45,007 nt of DNA from a phage. Of this stretch, positions 11,703 through 19,490 are shown piece by piece. A program made the position numbers and the translations under genes. The stretch lies in assembly GCA_014469095.1 (NCBI GenBank), contig GCA_014469095.1_4330.1; one strand, given 5' to 3'. The first letter of the stretch is position 1. Every line of letters begins with the position of its first letter. Under the pieces are notes generated by a model. The model was not told where the DNA came from, made no database searches, and was given only the letters and a program-made list of their open reading frames with translations.

Positions 11703-13874
11703 ATGAGTTACCTGTTCTTAGACTTTGAAACATTCTCAGAAGCCGATTTGAAGAAAGTCGGTTCTTACGCTTACGCCGAACACCCGTCAACCGAAGTGCT
11801 TATCTGTACATATGCTTTTGACGACGAACCTGTGCGGGTATGGGATTGCACCGACGGCAGCGACATGCCGGGGGATTTACACCGCGCACTGCGCCGCCTT
11901 GTTAAGCCCAACAGCCGCATCAAGATGGTGTGGCACAACGGTGGACTTTTCGATCGCCTAATCATGAAACACTGCTGGGACTTTGATATTCCGGTAAGTA
12001 ACACCATTGATACTATGATTTGGGCGTTCCGTCACGCGCTGCCGGGTTCTCTTGATGCGCTGTGCGAAGTGCTGGGCGTGTCTGCAGACAACGCGAAAGA
12101 TAAACGCGGCAAGGCTCTGATTAAGCGTTTCTCTAAACCGACGCCGAAGAACTACAAAATACGCCGGTATACCGCTGAAACGCACCCTGACGAGTGGGCG
12201 ATGTTCATCAGGTACGCCGTGAGCGACATCACTGCGATGCGTGAAGTCTTCCATAAGCTGCCGCGTTGGGGTAACTCCGAGTTCGAAGACCGTGTACTGG
12301 AACTTGACCAGTTAATCAACGACCGCGGATTTAAGGTTGACGTCGCACTGGCGGAAGCCGCGATTGAAGCCGTAGAGAAGCACAAGGCACAGTTACAGGA
12401 AGAAGCTCAACGTAAATACGGCGGCTCGCTTACCGGTAAAGACTTCCTTCCGATTCTGCGTGAACTTGCGCCCGCGCACCGCATACACAATGCACAGAAG
12501 TCGACGCTTAACGACCTGTTGGCAGATGATGATTTACCGGACGACGCCCGGATGATTATCGAAATGCGCCTCGGGGCCGCGTCAACAGCGTCCACGAAAT
12601 ATAACCCGCTGCTGTTAGGCCGCTCGTCGGACGACCGACGCCGCGGTTGTATCCAGTACGGTGGGGCAAAGCGTACGTTACGGTTCGCGGGTAAAGGCTT
12701 CCAGCCACAGAACCTGGCGCGTGGGTACTATCACGATGATGAACTGGATAAAGGCATTTCAGCGTTACTTAAGGGCCGGGCGCACCGCCGATTTGACGTA
12801 GCCAAGCTGACGGCATCTACCGTTCGTAGCTGCATTATACCGGAAGCTGGGCATAAGTTTGTCGTCGCCGATTACTCTAACGTTGAGGGTCGCGGGCTTG
12901 CGTGGCTGGCAGGTGAAGACGATTTAATCGAAGTATTTGTAAACGGGGTTGATGTGTATAAGAAACTCGCGTCAACGGTGTTCAACGTTGCATATGAGGA
13001 TGTAACAAAGGACCAAAGACAAATAGCCAAAGCAATGGTTCTGGGCCTCGGCTACGCGGGGGGTGTCGGTGCTTTCGTCACGTTTGCTAAAAACTTAGGT
13101 CTTGATTTGAACGATATGACTAACACTTTAGCAGGTACTTTCCCTGACCATATATGGGCCGCTACTGCACGAGGCTATGAGTGGGCGCGTATTCAGGAAG
13201 CCAAGCGACCACCACGTCCTGGTGAAAAAGATGACCGACCATCATATATTCTTGATAAGAAAGTGTGGCGTACCTGCGACGCTTTAAAACGCATGTACCG
13301 AGAAGCTAACCCCGCCATAGTCCAATTCTGGCGAGATATTGAAGACGCGGCTATGGCGGCTATCCGCAACCCCGGTAAAGAGTTCTCCGCAGGGCCGCGA
13401 GGCGTTAAGTTTTCGCGTAACGTAGAAACAGACAACAACGGCAACAAGGTCGCTGGTTGGTGGTTGCGCATGACGTTGCCGTCTGGCCGCGTTATGTCAT
13501 ACCCTGGCGTCGGATTGAGCGTATCTAAAGAGACAGACGAAGACGGGAAGGTGTCTACTAACGTGCGTATCAAGTACCAGGGAGAGAATCAGTTAACCCG
13601 TCAGTGGGGCTTCCAGTACACATATTCCGGTAAACTGGTGGAAAACTGCACTCAGGCACTGTGCCGTGATTTGCTGGCTAATGCGCTGCTGAACGTTGAA
13701 GCCAATGGCTACCCGATTGTGCTTCACGTACACGATGAGATTATCTGCGAGACACCAGATACGCCGGAATACAATGTCGCAGAACTGGAGCGATTGATGT
13801 GCGAATTACCGGAATGGGCAGAGGGTTTCCCTCTTGTAGCAGAAGGTGCGGAGATGAAGCGCTATGCTAAGTAA
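11703..13874 (+). CDS. DNA polymerase, family A, with 3-prime to 5-prime exonuclease domain
   Basis: ORF track; exonuclease motifs DFETFS, WHNGGLFD, YAVSDI; polymerase motifs DYSNVEGRG, KAMVLGLGYAGG, VHDEI. Confidence 0.9.
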   Translation: MSYLFLDFETFSEADLKKVGSYAYAEHPSTEVLICTYAFDDEPVRVWDCTDGSDMPGDLHRALRRLVKPNSRIKMVWHNGGLFDRLIMKHCWDFDIPVSNTIDTMIWAFRHALPGSLDALCEVLGVSADNAKDKRGKALIKRFSKPTPKNYKIRRYTAETHPDEWAMFIRYAVSDITAMREVFHKLPRWGNSEFEDRVLELDQLINDRGFKVDVALAEAAIEAVEKHKAQLQEEAQRKYGGSLTGKDFLPILRELAPAHRIHNAQKSTLNDLLADDDLPDDARMIIEMRLGAASTASTKYNPLLLGRSSDDRRRGCIQYGGAKRTLRFAGKGFQPQNLARGYYHDDELDKGISALLKGRAHRRFDVAKLTASTVRSCIIPEAGHKFVVADYSNVEGRGLAWLAGEDDLIEVFVNGVDVYKKLASTVFNVAYEDVTKDQRQIAKAMVLGLGYAGGVGAFVTFAKNLGLDLNDMTNTLAGTFPDHIWAATARGYEWARIQEAKRPPRPGEKDDRPSYILDKKVWRTCDALKRMYREANPAIVQFWRDIEDAAMAAIRNPGKEFSAGPRGVKFSRNVETDNNGNKVAGWWLRMTLPSGRVMSYPGVGLSVSKETDEDGKVSTNVRIKYQGENQLTRQWGFQYTYSGKLVENCTQALCRDLLANALLNVEANGYPIVLHVHDEIICETPDTPEYNVAELERLMCELPEWAEGFPLVAEGAEMKRYAK

Positions 13875-14081: not shown

Positions 14082-14230
14082 CAATGTTTGTATTTAGGAC
14101 CATAGTAACCATGCTCGCACTGTTACTCGGCGCGGGAATAGCTGCGATGTTCTGTTACGGCCTGTTCTTTAAGTTTGTTGGCGTTGCCGTTCTCGGAGGA
14201 GCGTTTATAACCTGGGTTCTGCGCTCATGA
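14078..14230 (+). CDS. Small membrane protein, 50 aa
   Basis: Absent from the track; two hydrophobic helices; ATGA overlaps on both sides. Confidence 0.35.
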   Translation: MTMFVFRTIVTMLALLLGAGIAAMFCYGLFFKFVGVAVLGGAFITWVLRS

Positions 14231-14511
14231 CCCCGGAAGGCAAGATTCAGAAATACGCAAAAGAGCGATTCGAGGCCATTGGTGGCCTCGTTCGCAAGAT
14301 GGCATTTGAAGGCCGGCGAGCCGCCATGGACCTGCTGGTAATTCTCCCCGGCGGTATCATCTGGTTCGTCGAGATTAAGAAAGACGAAAACACGAAGCCT
14401 GACCCCCACCAGTTACGCGAGCATGAAAGATTCCGTAAACGCGGTGCAAATGTTTTTGTCGTTGGTTCGTTTAAACAGGTTGACGACCTAATAGCGAACT
14501 ATTATAGTTAG
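14227..14511 (+). CDS. VRR-NUC domain nuclease, 94 aa
   Basis: ORF track; DLLVILPGGIIWFVEIKKD...PHQLREHERFRKRGANVFVV has the PD-(D/E)xK layout with EIK. Confidence 0.65.
   Translation: MTPEGKIQKYAKERFEAIGGLVRKMAFEGRRAAMDLLVILPGGIIWFVEIKKDENTKPDPHQLREHERFRKRGANVFVVGSFKQVDDLIANYYS
14480..14508 (+). promoter_or_regulatory. Sigma70-like promoter, type B (TTGACG-N17-TATAGT) with dyad core
   Basis: TTGACG-ACCTAATAGCGAACTAT-TATAGT; overlaps the 3-prime end of the VRR-NUC gene. Confidence 0.55.
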
Positions 14512-14541
14512 CCTTACACCAACAATATAAGGAATTGAGAA

Positions 14542-14733
14542 ATGAAACACGAATATGACCGTAAACCAGCACGTGACATCGTACCTGGCGACATGATTTT
14601 CAACGTTAAGACACGTCGCCCTGTTGCCGTTGATACGGTGTTCGTCGAGTCGAACGGTAAACTGGTTATCGAAGATGTAACTGGTAACGTTACGGCGTTC
14701 GGGCGTAAAGAGCTGGTGCTGGTGGCAAAATGA
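14542..14733 (+). CDS. Hypothetical protein, 63 aa
   Basis: ORF track. Confidence 0.5.
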   Translation: MKHEYDRKPARDIVPGDMIFNVKTRRPVAVDTVFVESNGKLVIEDVTGNVTAFGRKELVLVAK

Positions 14734-15413
14734 TTGTCTGGTCATTGTTTGACGGTTCGGGCCTTATGGCCCAACCGTGGGCAGAAGCGGGCCATACTTG
14801 CTATTGTTTCAACTACGACGGTGCCGACCACGGCGACTACGCGCGATTGGGCGCAAAAGTTGAACACGAGAACATCCACTATATAAACGCGTGGATTGAT
14901 AATAAGTTCGACTTCGAGGTTTCGCCAGATATTATTTTTGCGTTCCCTCCTTGCACAGATTTAGCCGTTAGTGGTGCGGCGCATTTCGAAACGAAGCGTA
15001 AGAAGAACCCAACGTTTCAGGTAGAGGCTGTTATCACATGCAAAGTGGCGGCACGCCTGGCTAAAAGGTATAACGTACCTTATATGATTGAGAACCCAGT
15101 TAGCGTCCTCTCGTCTTTGTGGCGTAAGCCCGATTATGTGTTCAATCCTTACGAATACGGCGGCTATCTACCGGAAGACGATACGCATCCAATGTTCCCT
15201 GAATACATAAAACCCCGAGACGCGTACCCTAAAAAGACATGTCTTTGGACGGGTAATGGTTTCGTAATGCCGGTTAAGTCAGGTGTTGCCGTGGGTGATG
15301 GGCATTCTGACCAGCACAACAAACTTGGCGGTAAATCAGTGCGGACAAAAACAATCCGCAGCCTTACTCCTCGGGGTTTCGCAAAAGCAGTTTACGAGGC
15401 TAATCATGTCTAA
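14730..15413 (+). CDS. DNA (cytosine-5)-methyltransferase-like protein, atypically short with variant motifs
   Basis: ORF track; motif I-like LFDGSGL, motif IV-like FPPCTDLAVSGA (PCT not PCQ), motif VI-like MIENPVS (ENP not ENV); at 227 aa there is no room for a normal target-recognition domain. Confidence 0.5.
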   Translation: MIVWSLFDGSGLMAQPWAEAGHTCYCFNYDGADHGDYARLGAKVEHENIHYINAWIDNKFDFEVSPDIIFAFPPCTDLAVSGAAHFETKRKKNPTFQVEAVITCKVAARLAKRYNVPYMIENPVSVLSSLWRKPDYVFNPYEYGGYLPEDDTHPMFPEYIKPRDAYPKKTCLWTGNGFVMPVKSGVAVGDGHSDQHNKLGGKSVRTKTIRSLTPRGFAKAVYEANHV

Positions 15414-16830
15414 GTTTCAAAGACGCGAGTACCAGAAGCTCATGACCTCGTTCATGCTGCAACACCCGCGCTGTAATATCTGGTGCGGAATGGGGGGAGG
15501 TAAAACCTCCTCCACTATGTGGGTGCTCAACCGCCTGTTCCGCAACGGGCAGCTTACGGAAGAGGACCGCGTGTTAATCCTTGCCCCGTTACGTGTTGCG
15601 TCCGGTACGTGGCCCGCTGAACAAGAGAAATGGCAATTCCCTTGTCTGCGTGTCGTAGATGCAACTGGTTCGGAGAAGCGCCGCATCGCAGCGCTGGAGT
15701 CAGATGCTAACGTGGTGTGCACTAACTACGAAGTTATCGAGTGGCTAATTGACTACTACGGCAAAGACGACTGGCCTTTTACGGTTATCGTTGCCGATGA
15801 AAGCACGAAGCTTAAATCGTTCCGCAGCCGTTCGGGTGGTAGCAAGCGGGCAAAGGCGCTCAGCAAGGTTGCGTTCGGAAAGGTTAAGCGTTTCATCAAC
15901 CTGACAGGCACACCGTCACCAAACGGCCTCAAAGACTTGTGGGGTCAGAACTGGTTTATCGACGCTGGCGAGCGCCTCGGCTCTTCGTACACAGCATTCA
16001 CCGACCGCTGGTTTAACTCGGTACAGAAAGGTAAGTCGGCTATGGCCCGCGAGTATCATGCACGACCGGGCGCAGATAATGAAATTCATCAGAAGATGAA
16101 AGACATCAGCCTGACCATCGACCCTGCCGAGTGGTTCGGTTGTGAAGCGCCTGTTATCGTACCGGTGGAAATAGACCTGCCGAAGAAAGCGCGTCAGGCG
16201 TACATCGATATGGAGGAGAAGTTATTCGCTGAGCTGGAGAGCGGAGAAGTCGAAGCGGCTAACGCCGCGGCGAAGACGTCGAAATGTTTGCAGATTGCAT
16301 CTGGTGCCGTGTATGTGTCAGGGCCGGATGGCGAAGCGACCAAAGACTGGGAGAAAGTGCACGACACGAAACTGGATGCGCTCGAGTCGATTGTTGAGGA
16401 GTTGCAGGGTGCGCCGTTGCTGGTAGCCTATCAGTTTAAACACGAACTGGAGCGTATCCTTAAGCGATTCCCACAGGCACAGGCGTTCGCCAAAGGCGCT
16501 AGGGGGAACAAGCAGATGGAAGCGTGGAACCGTGGGGAAATCGAGATTTTATGCGTGCATCCTGCGTCAGCCGGGCATGGTTTGAATTTACAGGACGGGG
16601 GTCATCATCTGGCGTTCATCTCGCAAGGCTGGAACCTTGAGCACTATTTGCAGGTTGTTGAGCGCATAGGCCCAGTCCGCCAGAAACAGGCGGGTCACGA
16701 GCGCCCGGTGTTCCTTTATCACATCGTTGCTAAAGACACTCTGGACGAGGTTGTCGCCGCGCGTACCGACGAGAAGAAATCGGTACAGGAAGAGTTGCTT
16801 AATTACATGAAGAGACGAGGTAAGAAATGA
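15406..16830 (+). CDS. SNF2/DEAD-like superfamily 2 helicase
   Basis: ORF track 15283..16830; ATG at 15406 overlaps the upstream stop; motifs GMGGGKTS, VIVADESTKLK, LTGTPSPN, HPASAGHGLNLQ. Confidence 0.8.
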   Translation: MSKFQRREYQKLMTSFMLQHPRCNIWCGMGGGKTSSTMWVLNRLFRNGQLTEEDRVLILAPLRVASGTWPAEQEKWQFPCLRVVDATGSEKRRIAALESDANVVCTNYEVIEWLIDYYGKDDWPFTVIVADESTKLKSFRSRSGGSKRAKALSKVAFGKVKRFINLTGTPSPNGLKDLWGQNWFIDAGERLGSSYTAFTDRWFNSVQKGKSAMAREYHARPGADNEIHQKMKDISLTIDPAEWFGCEAPVIVPVEIDLPKKARQAYIDMEEKLFAELESGEVEAANAAAKTSKCLQIASGAVYVSGPDGEATKDWEKVHDTKLDALESIVEELQGAPLLVAYQFKHELERILKRFPQAQAFAKGARGNKQMEAWNRGEIEILCVHPASAGHGLNLQDGGHHLAFISQGWNLEHYLQVVERIGPVRQKQAGHERPVFLYHIVAKDTLDEVVAARTDEKKSVQEELLNYMKRRGKK

Positions 16831-17342
16831 TGGATTTCGAAGAGTTTCTACTTAAAGCTCATCTGCTGGCGCGTGGGTTTGACGCTGACCGTCTCCAGGT
16901 AGTCTTAGCCCCTGGAGTAGCTACGTTTTACCTGTGGGGGTTTGACGGTAGGCTTCGCGGATACCAGCATTACAAACCACATGCCGAAAAGAACTGTAAA
17001 AACCCTAAAGACGCGCGGTACTTTACCAGAACAACAAGGCCGTGTTTATGGGGGCTTGAGTATTTGCCGGAAAGCGGGGTGGTATTTGTTACCGAAAGCA
17101 TATTCAAAGCCGTAGCCTTGATGAATTGCGGGTTCAATGCTGTAAGCGCACTGGGGTCAAATATATCAACAGACCTACGGCAGCAAATGTCACTTTTGCC
17201 GTATGACTGGGTGTGCGCTGGCGACAATGATAAAGCTGGATTAAAGTTCAGCAAAACATTCACCAGAGGATTTGTATCTAACGACCTTGATGAACTTTGT
17301 GAAGAAGAAATAACGTATCTTGCGAGGAAATTTACCAGATGA
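16827..17342 (+). CDS. Toprim-like domain protein, 171 aa
   Basis: ORF track; conserved Glu in VFVTESIFKA and a DxD in CAGDNDKAG. Confidence 0.45.
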   Translation: MMDFEEFLLKAHLLARGFDADRLQVVLAPGVATFYLWGFDGRLRGYQHYKPHAEKNCKNPKDARYFTRTTRPCLWGLEYLPESGVVFVTESIFKAVALMNCGFNAVSALGSNISTDLRQQMSLLPYDWVCAGDNDKAGLKFSKTFTRGFVSNDLDELCEEEITYLARKFTR

Positions 17343-17480: not shown

Positions 17481-17507
17481 AAGGCCCCGTTTGGGGCCTT
17501 AGTTTTA
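17481..17507. terminator. Bidirectional intrinsic terminator (AAGGCCCC-N4-GGGGCCTT family)
   Basis: AAGGCCCC-GTTT-GGGGCCTT then AGTTTTA; separates the rightward early block from the leftward tail genes. Confidence 0.75.
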
Positions 17508-19490
17508 AGCCAACGACATTCGGGAGTTAGCGAAAGCTAAAGCCTGAGCCTGCGTCGTAAACTCAGCGATGAAGAAGTCACTAAATCTGATAACAGCACC
17601 TGAACCTCCCCCAGTAGAGACGTACAGACCTACAGTACCGTTAGCGGAAGCTTTACCCACCCCAAATGTGCTAATCCACTCACCAGACTTAGTATAAACG
17701 CTACCCATAGTAATACCTAACGTTATACTCACATCTGCTGTTCCTGATTGGAGGCGAGAGTTGACGCCCCACACGTACCATCTACCGGATGTAAGTGTCG
17801 TTCTTGACGCTACCATTTCATATAAACCGGGCCCAGGGAATGAAAATTCGGTACATGTAGCGGCGTGAAGTCCGTCAGATACAGTCGAACCGTTAACGGT
17901 ACCGCTACCAGAAAAATTATGGCGACCTGAGTCAAATGTGATAGCTTTTAACTTATTCCCCGTCGGCGTATTAAACACTCGTCCCCTTGTTAAATTTCCT
18001 CGTAGAGACAAGTTTGTAGTGGCTATCGTTGCGGATTGCGACGCGACAGACTCTACAATAACGTCCTTTCCAGAGCTGCCGTTTAAATACACGTCGTGGG
18101 CTACGATGGTGCTTTGTGCATCCACTACAATATCCTGATTACCATCGGCGTTGTCAAAACGGCAACCATAAGTTACTAAGTTGGAGTTGGATAGCTCGAT
18201 GTTATTGAGATAAGAATACTCAGCAAAGAATATCGCGGTGTCTACCAACTTGAGAACTCGCGGTTTTTGCGCCACGCCGTCTACCTGAACAGCCGATGAT
18301 GTTGCAATAGATCCCATCCATACATTGGATACCCCGCATGGAGATATAGGACAGTCACCTGATTTGCTTTTTAAATATATCCCGCCGCCTCCGGAAGCCT
18401 CAATAATGGAGTCTTTAAGCCACCATCCGCCTATCCCGCCGTTATCGACAGTGCCGTTTAGGTAGACGGCATAGGTGGAGATGCCGTCGAAGTGGATATT
18501 GTAGAGGGTATCGGCCCCGCAATGCATCTCTGAGCCACTAATCGCGTAATACCCCCAATCACACGTAGATACCCCAATATTTCTCCATGTATTACCGATG
18601 TTCCCGGAAGGCTTCTGAATGGCCTTGTTGATGTTGTGGATGTATAAATCACTAAAATTATGACGTCCGGAATATTGGTCTGACGGGTCAAAACTAATAC
18701 CTACGGCCCCAGTTGTACCTGTACCATCTACGGCAAAACCACCGCTGTGTCGAAACTGCCAGTGCGGGGTGGATAAATTAACCTGTACAGTATTTGCATA
18801 GTTTGCCGATGGTTTTAATATTGCAGCACCACCTACACCTTTTATCTGCTTACTACCCAGAGTGATTGCTTCTGTATACTCACCCGGAGAAACAATTAAG
18901 TCGTTTTTAGTTAACGACGCATCTACCGCGGCTTGAAGGGTAGAAAAGTCGCCAGAATGCTTAATATCATTGTTACGTGCAAGCAAACTCCTTTCGCCAC
19001 TGCCTATGTTCTTGGCACCTTCCGCGTCAGATAATGTTTCAACGGTGTTACCGTTGGAAAAAGACACCAGTGAAGCCCCTAAACCGGCGGTACTTGACGC
19101 CAAATCATTACGCAAATTTGGGTCTGTCTGCGGCTTCCAGTTAGCGTTACCGACTGGATTAAAACTCGCGGGAACAACAACCGGCAACGTACCCGCATAT
19201 GAGTACCACGTCTTGCTTACGGGGTCATACACCACTTTGTCGCGGCCATTAACTGTTAACGTACCGCCGGTGGAAAAGTCCCACGATACGGGAGAAAAAC
19301 CCGCGTCGCGCAACACGGCAGGAAGCGTCTTCTGCGTCTGCCCGGTAACCTGATTTGTTGCGTAATCAATGTCTGCACCCGTAGCTACACCGCCGGATTT
19401 GCCAGTGATAACCTCGGCCTCGAAAATCTGATGTTTCTTGGCGGTCTGTAAATCCGCCAGGCTTAAAACGTCACCGCATCCGCTTGACAT
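17505..19490 (-). CDS. Tail fibre / tailspike protein, probable beta-helix receptor-binding domain
   Basis: ORF track; last gene of the tail module, 661 aa, Gly/Ser/Thr/Asn-rich repetitive C-terminal two-thirds. Confidence 0.65.
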   Translation of the reverse strand: MSSGCGDVLSLADLQTAKKHQIFEAEVITGKSGGVATGADIDYATNQVTGQTQKTLPAVLRDAGFSPVSWDFSTGGTLTVNGRDKVVYDPVSKTWYSYAGTLPVVVPASFNPVGNANWKPQTDPNLRNDLASSTAGLGASLVSFSNGNTVETLSDAEGAKNIGSGERSLLARNNDIKHSGDFSTLQAAVDASLTKNDLIVSPGEYTEAITLGSKQIKGVGGAAILKPSANYANTVQVNLSTPHWQFRHSGGFAVDGTGTTGAVGISFDPSDQYSGRHNFSDLYIHNINKAIQKPSGNIGNTWRNIGVSTCDWGYYAISGSEMHCGADTLYNIHFDGISTYAVYLNGTVDNGGIGGWWLKDSIIEASGGGGIYLKSKSGDCPISPCGVSNVWMGSIATSSAVQVDGVAQKPRVLKLVDTAIFFAEYSYLNNIELSNSNLVTYGCRFDNADGNQDIVVDAQSTIVAHDVYLNGSSGKDVIVESVASQSATIATTNLSLRGNLTRGRVFNTPTGNKLKAITFDSGRHNFSGSGTVNGSTVSDGLHAATCTEFSFPGPGLYEMVASRTTLTSGRWYVWGVNSRLQSGTADVSITLGITMGSVYTKSGEWISTFGVGKASANGTVGLYVSTGGGSGAVIRFSDFFIAEFTTQAQALAFANSRMSLA

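Follow-up and report, generated by a model that had tools for sequence, protein, structure and literature searches.

A probable mini DNA cytosine-5 methyltransferase of the PHROG 757 family, carried as a cassette in the replication operon of a Kagunavirus

We analyzed a phage genome of 45,007 nucleotides (contig GCA_014469095.1_4330.1 of GenBank assembly GCA_014469095.1; this whole stretch is referred to as the window) and identified it as an essentially complete Kagunavirus (Guernseyvirinae) genome. We conclude that one of its genes, which encodes a protein of 227 amino acids, very likely specifies an active DNA C5-methyltransferase that depends on S-adenosylmethionine (AdoMet), belongs to the PHROG 757 mini family and consists of a Rossmann-type core with almost no target-recognition domain (TRD). 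Its product falls into a family of phage ‘Dcm-like’ mini C5-methyltransferases that is very common and has been described before. The gene is an ordinary accessory gene of little weight as a discovery; the annotations of sister phages routinely name it a DNA cytosine methyltransferase, and experiments have been done on an orthologue. The sole modestly novel angle is the mode of DNA recognition of such TRD-less mini-methylases of about 227 amino acids. The gene and the motifs of its product are located as follows.

14730..15413, plus strand: gene for the predicted mini ‘Dcm-like’ DNA cytosine-5 methyltransferase, 227 amino acids, ATG start, PHROG 757
14742..14762, plus strand: motif I-like AdoMet loop S5-L-F-D-G-S-G11 at the end of strand beta1; in the alignments M.HhaI has FIDLFAGLGG here and E. 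coli Dcm has FIDLFAGIGG
14943..14975, plus strand: motif IV, the catalytic loop F72-P-P-C75-T-D-L-A-V-S-G82; its counterpart in the M.HhaI alignment is GFPCQAFSISG
15090..15098, plus strand: motif VI E121-N-P123 (ENP for ENV), aligned with ENV of M.HhaI and Dcm
15144..15248, plus strand: family-specific segment N139-W173 in the place of motif VIII, holding K168/K169
15357..15404, plus strand: motif IX-like C-terminal segment R210-S-L-T-P-R-G-F-A-K-A220 ... A224-N225 with the terminal helix

The protein matches phrog_757, ‘DNA methyltransferase’, from end to end (residues 1–226, E 5.5e-87). Using tblastn, we detected this family in 1,526 of 50,697 phage records, with coverage of at least 80% in 1,475 records. 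The hosts are mostly Escherichia, Klebsiella, Salmonella and Shigella, and the genomes fall into size classes of ~42–50 kb (including Drexlerviridae, Dhillonvirus and Guernseyvirinae) and ~135–165 kb. At 90% identity, a word-indexed search yielded over 7,700 clusters, and an exhaustive HMMER scan (E up to 1e-3) returned 1,292 clusters at 50% identity, in which nearly all full-length members have 210–260 amino acids. Over 1,400 phage genomes preserve the whole open reading frame (ORF), which indicates that it is real. The protein carries all the signatures of the family, namely a PPCT loop, ENP, D-x-Y-x-K-x-T-x-x-W, R-S-x-T-P-R-G-F-A and a length of ~210–260 amino acids; the signature residues recur in 77–86 of 86 aligned members. 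To our knowledge, the members of about 227 amino acids would be the smallest natural DNA C5-methyltransferases.

Homologues that are 45–74% identical to the protein also occur in four records labeled ‘Campylobacter phage’ with C. jejuni as host (MG065688, MG065646, MG065650 and MG065636). The genomes in these records, of ~44, 50, 137 and 151 kb, are typical of coliphage groups, and the host labels look doubtful.

An AlphaFold2 model built from the family alignment (predicted local distance difference test score, pLDDT, 95.9; predicted template modeling score, pTM, 0.92) revealed a seven-stranded alpha/beta core. The top 50 Foldseek matches in the PDB were all DNMT3-family methyltransferase structures (best E 7.8e-7), identifying the fold as the class I, Rossmann-type catalytic domain of C5-methyltransferases. 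In the model, strand 170–175 is the last of the core and residues 215–225 form the C-terminal helix. Between them lie only ~39 residues (176–214) with two short helices, compared with ~100 residues between motifs VIII and IX in M.HhaI; a variable TRD of at least ~80 residues does not fit between these motifs. A conserved insertion of ~30 residues (139–169) is found between the last two core strands. At 227 amino acids, the protein is much shorter than M.HhaI (327) and E. coli Dcm (472). An earlier note, made from the nucleotide sequence alone, had suggested a divergent orphan methyltransferase too short for a conventional TRD, and had named a fold unrelated to class I methyltransferases as evidence to the contrary. 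The model and its structural matches uphold the suggestion, as does the minimal target-recognition region.

Profile alignments with HHalign, against M.HhaI alone, a combined M.HhaI/M.HaeIII profile and E. coli Dcm, placed FDGSG, PCT and ENP opposite FxGxG, PCQ and ENV of these three enzymes. The M.HhaI and M.HaeIII sequences were verified against the PDB. A search for M.HhaI homologues gave only sequences at least 71% identical, and hence a poor profile. The order of the motifs I, IV and VI that the earlier note had described can be read directly from the sequence as FDGSG, FPPCT and ENP. Conservation was counted in an alignment of 86 diverse PHROG 757 members, which are 34–72% identical to the protein and have a median length of 238.5 amino acids. 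The F7-D8-G9-S10-G11 loop (nucleotides 14748–14762) conforms to FxGxG and aligns with F-A-G-L-G-G; the family consensus at this site is (F/Y)-D-x-(T/S)-G, with G9 in 10/86. In motif IV, where F72-P-P-C75-T76 occupies nucleotides 14943–14957, the predicted catalytic nucleophile C75 is present in 85/86, T76 in 77/86 and G82 in 85/86. In motif VI, E121 and P123 are invariant and N122 is found in 82/86. Thus P74-C75 and E121-N122 match PC and EN of M.HhaI and Dcm, and the next residues are T instead of Q and P instead of V. These replacements, noted earlier as non-canonical, are confirmed to lie in register with PCQ and ENV, but other proteins have them too: a very large phage family bears PCT and ENP as its signature.

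The N139-W173 segment contains P140, EYGGYLP and D164-A-Y166-x-K168-x-T170-C-L-W173. P140, Y166 and W173 are present in all 86 members, K168 in 85 and T170 in 84, and the positions of the D164-x-Y166-x-K168-x-T170-x-x-W173 block are conserved in 81–86. By position, Y166-P-K-K-T170 replaces QxRxR, and the segment may be equivalent to the QxRxR of motif VIII. Towards the C-terminus, R210 is found in 84/86, P214 in 80/86, G216 in 84/86, A220 in 81/86 and N225 in 66/86, and the R210-S-x-T-P-R-G216-F-A block is conserved in 64–84/86 per position. The stretch from R210 to A220 resembles RKLHPRECARV of M.HhaI by eye only, as the profile alignments did not reach this region. There is no separate motif X, and the protein ends in A224-N225-H-V. 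The near-invariance of the Cys, the Glu and the Lys168/Thr170/Trp173 block across ~35–60% identity argues for a conserved enzymatic function.

Experimental evidence on activity comes from the Hanriverviruses KarlJaspers (Bas06) and K42. The ‘Dcm-like’ product of the 711-bp KarlJaspers gene bas06_0055 is 57% identical to the protein (E 9e-98), with residues 2–225 aligned to 5–234, and the K42 genome reportedly shares 95.4% identity with that of KarlJaspers (bioRxiv 10.1101/2023.08.16.553469, a preprint that subsequently appeared as Wang et al., Cell Rep 2024;43:114857). In that study, K42 mutants that escape retron Ec86 all disrupt the 711-bp ‘Dcm-like’ gene, and expression of this gene triggers the retron. 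LC-MS (liquid chromatography coupled to mass spectrometry) showed that K42 Dcm expression raises 5-methylcytosine (5mC) in the multicopy single-stranded DNA (msDNA) of retron Ec86, whereas a C82A/E128A/K175A/K176A mutant neither raised 5mC nor triggered the retron (bioRxiv 10.1101/2023.08.16.553469). By way of bas06_0055, we matched the four mutated residues to C75, E121, K168 and K169 of the protein studied here. The enzymes are of the same family and length class (236 versus 227 amino acids), align end to end, and share, for KarlJaspers, identical FPPCTDLA, IENPV, KKTCLWTGNGF and IRSLTPRGFA blocks. They differ in their phages (Drexlerviridae versus Guernseyvirinae/Kagunavirus) and in genomic neighborhood.

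Full-length relatives were also identified in Pantoea phage AAS23 (gp52, 54% identity) and Klebsiella phage KP36 (gp74, NC_029099, 14553–15245 on the minus strand, 46% identity). The DNA of both phages is reported to be resistant to EcoRII, and the authors of the AAS23 study obtained an HHpred probability of 99.7% for gp52 with a Shigella cytosine methyltransferase structure. The 2013 paper on KP36 described complete EcoRII resistance, stated that the phage was without a cytosine methyltransferase and credited the host. We note that KP36 gp74 is a member of the mini-methylase family that was not recognized as a cytosine methylase by those authors.

Several observations weigh against an active C5-methyltransferase, or against parts of this interpretation. 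The activity of the protein itself would follow from that of its relatives. The match to Pfam PF00145 is confined to residues 3–100, and its 17.2 bits fall short of the cut-off of 22; only 5/86 family members reach E 0.01 against this model. NCBIfam gave no match to the protein, and BLASTP against E. coli Dcm gave E 0.36. This lack of similarity makes ‘Dcm-like’ a functional nickname and not a statement of orthology. Similarly, phmmer found no match to the protein among PDB sequences, and the family profile found there only a non-significant match to DNMT2 (E 0.19). HHalign covered only motifs I–IV or IV–VI; as the profile alignments end at motif VI, motifs VIII (QxRxR) to X (GNxV) were not mapped by sequence. 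In addition, Asn28 (in N28-Y-D30, nucleotides 14811–14819) stands where an acidic residue is usual after beta2 (D in 74/86, N in 10/86), and an Asp at this place is expected to bind the AdoMet ribose. The Asn is shared by a subclade of Kagunavirus, KarlJaspers, AAS23 and KP36; in KarlJaspers it belongs to the orthologue of the K42 enzyme, which is active. The EcoRII resistance of AAS23 and KP36 could be explained by host Dcm. In the BASEL study, methyltransferase genes of phages were not linked in any simple way to resistance to restriction. Finally, the CCWGG specificity in the retron study was assumed from host Dcm, and the MG1655 host used there is itself dcm+ (bioRxiv 10.1101/2023.08.16.553469).

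Compared with the canonical C5-methyltransferases of PF00145 (M.HhaI, M.HaeIII and E. coli Dcm), the protein keeps the order and spacing of motifs I, IV and VI. It differs from them in being ~100 residues shorter (245 shorter than Dcm) and in lacking a conventional TRD or small domain. It also differs in PCT for PCQ, ENP for ENV and Y-x-K-x-T-C-L-W where QxRxR is expected, in falling below the Pfam threshold and in having no identifiable motif X. The catalytic domains of DNMT3A and DNMT3B are only 13–16% identical to the protein. DNMT3 enzymes have canonical PCN, ENV and RxR motifs and recognize CpG as dimers or tetramers.

By analogy with M.HhaI and DNMT3, we predict that AdoMet binds at the beta1 loop F7-D-G-S-G11 and that the target cytosine is flipped out of the helix. 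Cys75 of the PPCT loop would attack C6 while Glu121 of ENP forms a hydrogen bond with N3/N4 or protonates it. Transfer of the methyl group to C5 would follow, and beta-elimination would free the enzyme. DNA contacts are probably made by the conserved 139–173 segment, including K168/K169, and by the short 176–214 region. The gene is an accessory cassette inserted in an operon of replication genes, so the methyltransferase would be made during phage DNA replication. The orthologue in the Kagunavirus K1B4 belongs to the same temporal transcription class as DNA polymerase A.

The phage would probably benefit by keeping host restriction away from its progeny DNA, possibly that of EcoRII-type enzymes at CCWGG sites, and an anti-restriction role is plausible. 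One cost is known: the methylase can set off abortive infection by retron Ec86/Eco1. Carriage of this gene is predicted to make the phage sensitive to this retron, which matters for host range in phage therapy. CCWGG specificity of this particular enzyme is putative. In the window, CCWGG is only mildly depleted (82 sites observed versus 119 expected), which is uninformative about what the enzyme methylates.

A maximal-order Markov model of the whole window (1–45007) showed that GATC is nearly absent, with 10 sites versus ~155 expected. CTAG (23 versus 69 expected) and CTGCAG (2 versus 8.7 expected) are depleted as well. These depletions suggest selection against GATC-targeting restriction or Dam/MutH-type processes.

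Alternatively, these mini C5-methyltransferases, of ~227 amino acids, may not copy the host CCWGG specificity. The 139–173 insertion, perhaps in DNMT3-like dimers, could read a short or relaxed motif, or the enzymes could act on hairpin or single-stranded replication intermediates; the latter would fit the action of the mini-methylase on retron msDNA. We regard this proposal as unlikely, although credible enough to keep in view. If true, the family would provide a minimal C5-methylation scaffold with a new mode of DNA recognition.

It is far less probable that the protein is catalytically dead or acts on a substrate other than DNA, as a DNMT3L-like regulator or DNA binder or as a DNMT2-like tRNA m5C methyltransferase. 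Such a role would agree with the lack of a recognizable TRD, motif VIII or motif X, with the poor conservation of the motif I glycines across the family and with the identity of the best PDB match of the family profile, the non-significant one to DNMT2. It is difficult to reconcile with the near-invariant residues described above, and the K42 orthologue methylates DNA in a manner that needs those residues (bioRxiv 10.1101/2023.08.16.553469).

The active methyltransferase that we favor is encoded in a tightly packed, rightward operon, in which the polymerase is followed by small ORFs, the VRR-NUC nuclease, a 63-aa ORF, the methyltransferase, an SNF2 helicase and a Toprim protein:

11703-13874, plus strand: family A DNA polymerase, with small ORFs next
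14227-14511, plus strand: VRR-NUC nuclease
14542..14733, plus strand: conserved 63-aa ORF of unknown function (phrog_4879, E 2.7e-46), annotated in phages JSSK01 and XY1
14730..15405, plus strand: 676-nucleotide presence/absence cassette relative to the Kagunavirus XY1, from pairwise alignment and the XY1 annotation
15406..16830, plus strand: SNF2-family helicase, 474 amino acids, ATG start at 15406 (PF00176, E 6.7e-13; phrog_62, E 7e-167)
16827..17342, plus strand: Toprim-domain primase-like protein, 171 amino acids (Toprim_2 PF13155, E 9.6e-5; phrog_849 ‘DNA primase’, E 2.7e-48)

The 3.7-kb stretch around the methyltransferase gene shares 99.1% identity with Escherichia phage vB_EcoS-22664BS2 and 87–95% with many other Kagunaviruses. 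The ATG of the methyltransferase overlaps the TGA stop of the upstream 63-aa ORF (ATGA), and its own TAA stop (15411–15413) lies within the helicase start, ATGTCTAA, giving an overlap of 8 nucleotides with the helicase gene. The helicase start at 15406 is likewise annotated in JSSK01 and is the sole possible start in XY1. The ORF list shows that overlaps between stops and starts are common along the whole operon.

Pairwise alignment with XY1 revealed a clean indel of 676 nucleotides, with both genomes reading ...GGCAAAATGA at the junction. The ATG of this junction starts the methyltransferase in the window and the helicase (MSKFQRREYQ...) in XY1, where the 63-aa ORF directly abuts the helicase gene. 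The 3′ end of the cassette supplies a GAGG Shine-Dalgarno sequence for the helicase. XY1 and at least three other close relatives lack the gene and keep the helicase and the primase; these Kagunaviruses cover only ~81–82% of the 3.7-kb query and list no methyltransferase. In the Dhillonvirus Sponge, the methyltransferase gene is located downstream of a homologous helicase. In the Drexlerviridae (KarlJaspers, AAS23 and KP36) it stands among small early genes with no SNF2 neighbor; two small ORFs separate it from the closest helicase gene, whose product is of a different type (DUF3987 in AAS23).

The earlier note had proposed that the methyltransferase is coupled to the helicase. The overlap that it had reported between the two genes, and the Toprim gene that follows, were confirmed by the coordinates and the domain matches, but the coupling itself was not borne out. 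The cassette is absent from XY1 and the gene has another position in other phages. On the basis of these gene arrangements, we interpret the adjacency as an accident of gene packing, presumably without functional coupling. We therefore consider it highly improbable that the methyltransferase and the helicase work together as a remodeler–methylase module of the DNMT5 or P1 DarB type. The 8-nucleotide overlap, the Dhillonvirus gene that also adjoins a homologous helicase, and remote copies of the fold (25–28% identity) that occur as fusions with helicase-type proteins longer than 1,100 amino acids in uncultured phages would all favor such a module. However, stops and starts overlap as a rule along the operon, the helicase reuses the GGCAAAATGA junction in XY1, and close relatives dispense with the methyltransferase yet retain helicase and primase. 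The side of the helicase on which the gene stands differs between Kagunavirus and Dhillonvirus, and the Drexlerviridae genes have no SNF2 helicase next to them. Ten longer family members scanned for fused domains yielded one HNH domain and no helicase domain, and K42 Dcm works when expressed alone (bioRxiv 10.1101/2023.08.16.553469).

The fusions with helicase-type proteins were seen in BFVD entries A0A6J5SE15 and A0A6J5NPY6 from uncultured Caudovirales (template modeling score, TM, ~0.66). Methylase–helicase fusions of this fold thus exist.

The phage DNA cytosine C5-carboxymethyltransferase CmoX (PDB 8yf3), of ~370 amino acids, uses carboxy-S-adenosylmethionine (Cx-SAM) by means of an Arg that replaces Asn304 of M.HhaI, has an SPPC motif and is usually encoded beside genes for CmoA and a CmoY ligase. 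The protein studied here shares none of these features with CmoX: its loop is FPPC and not SPPC, its C-terminal consensus is A-N (with N225 as the counterpart of Asn304 by position only) and not Arg, its size differs and no linkage to CmoA or CmoY was seen among the named products of a 99%-identical genome. Chemistry other than simple methylation, which had also been raised earlier, is the least probable reading, whether as transfer of another group such as carboxymethyl from Cx-SAM or as the first step of a hypermodification pathway: the donor would be available, as E. coli has a CmoA of its own that provides Cx-SAM, and the motifs differ from those of canonical methylases, but we reject this candidate given the 5mC that the K42 enzyme yields by LC-MS (bioRxiv 10.1101/2023.08.16.553469), the missing hallmarks of CmoX, and the lack of CmoA or a ligase among the named products of a 99%-identical genome, in which most genes are hypothetical.

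The nearest RefSeq record, NC_073324, labels the methyltransferase ‘hypothetical protein’ and could be re-annotated; sister Kagunaviruses including JSSK01 name it a DNA cytosine methyltransferase. This record also places an antisense 85-aa ORF (14488–14745, minus strand) where the plus-strand 63-aa ORF stands, and starts the helicase at 15283, 116 nucleotides inside the methyltransferase gene, instead of at 15406. JSSK01 and XY1 favor the plus-strand 63-aa ORF and the helicase ATG at 15406 over these annotations.

Adjoining the replication operon, we identified a 661-aa tailspike (17505–19490, minus strand) that is unlike its positional counterpart in JSSK01 and XY1, the K1 endosialidase (endo-N-acetylneuraminidase). 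This difference represents a swap of a host-range module.

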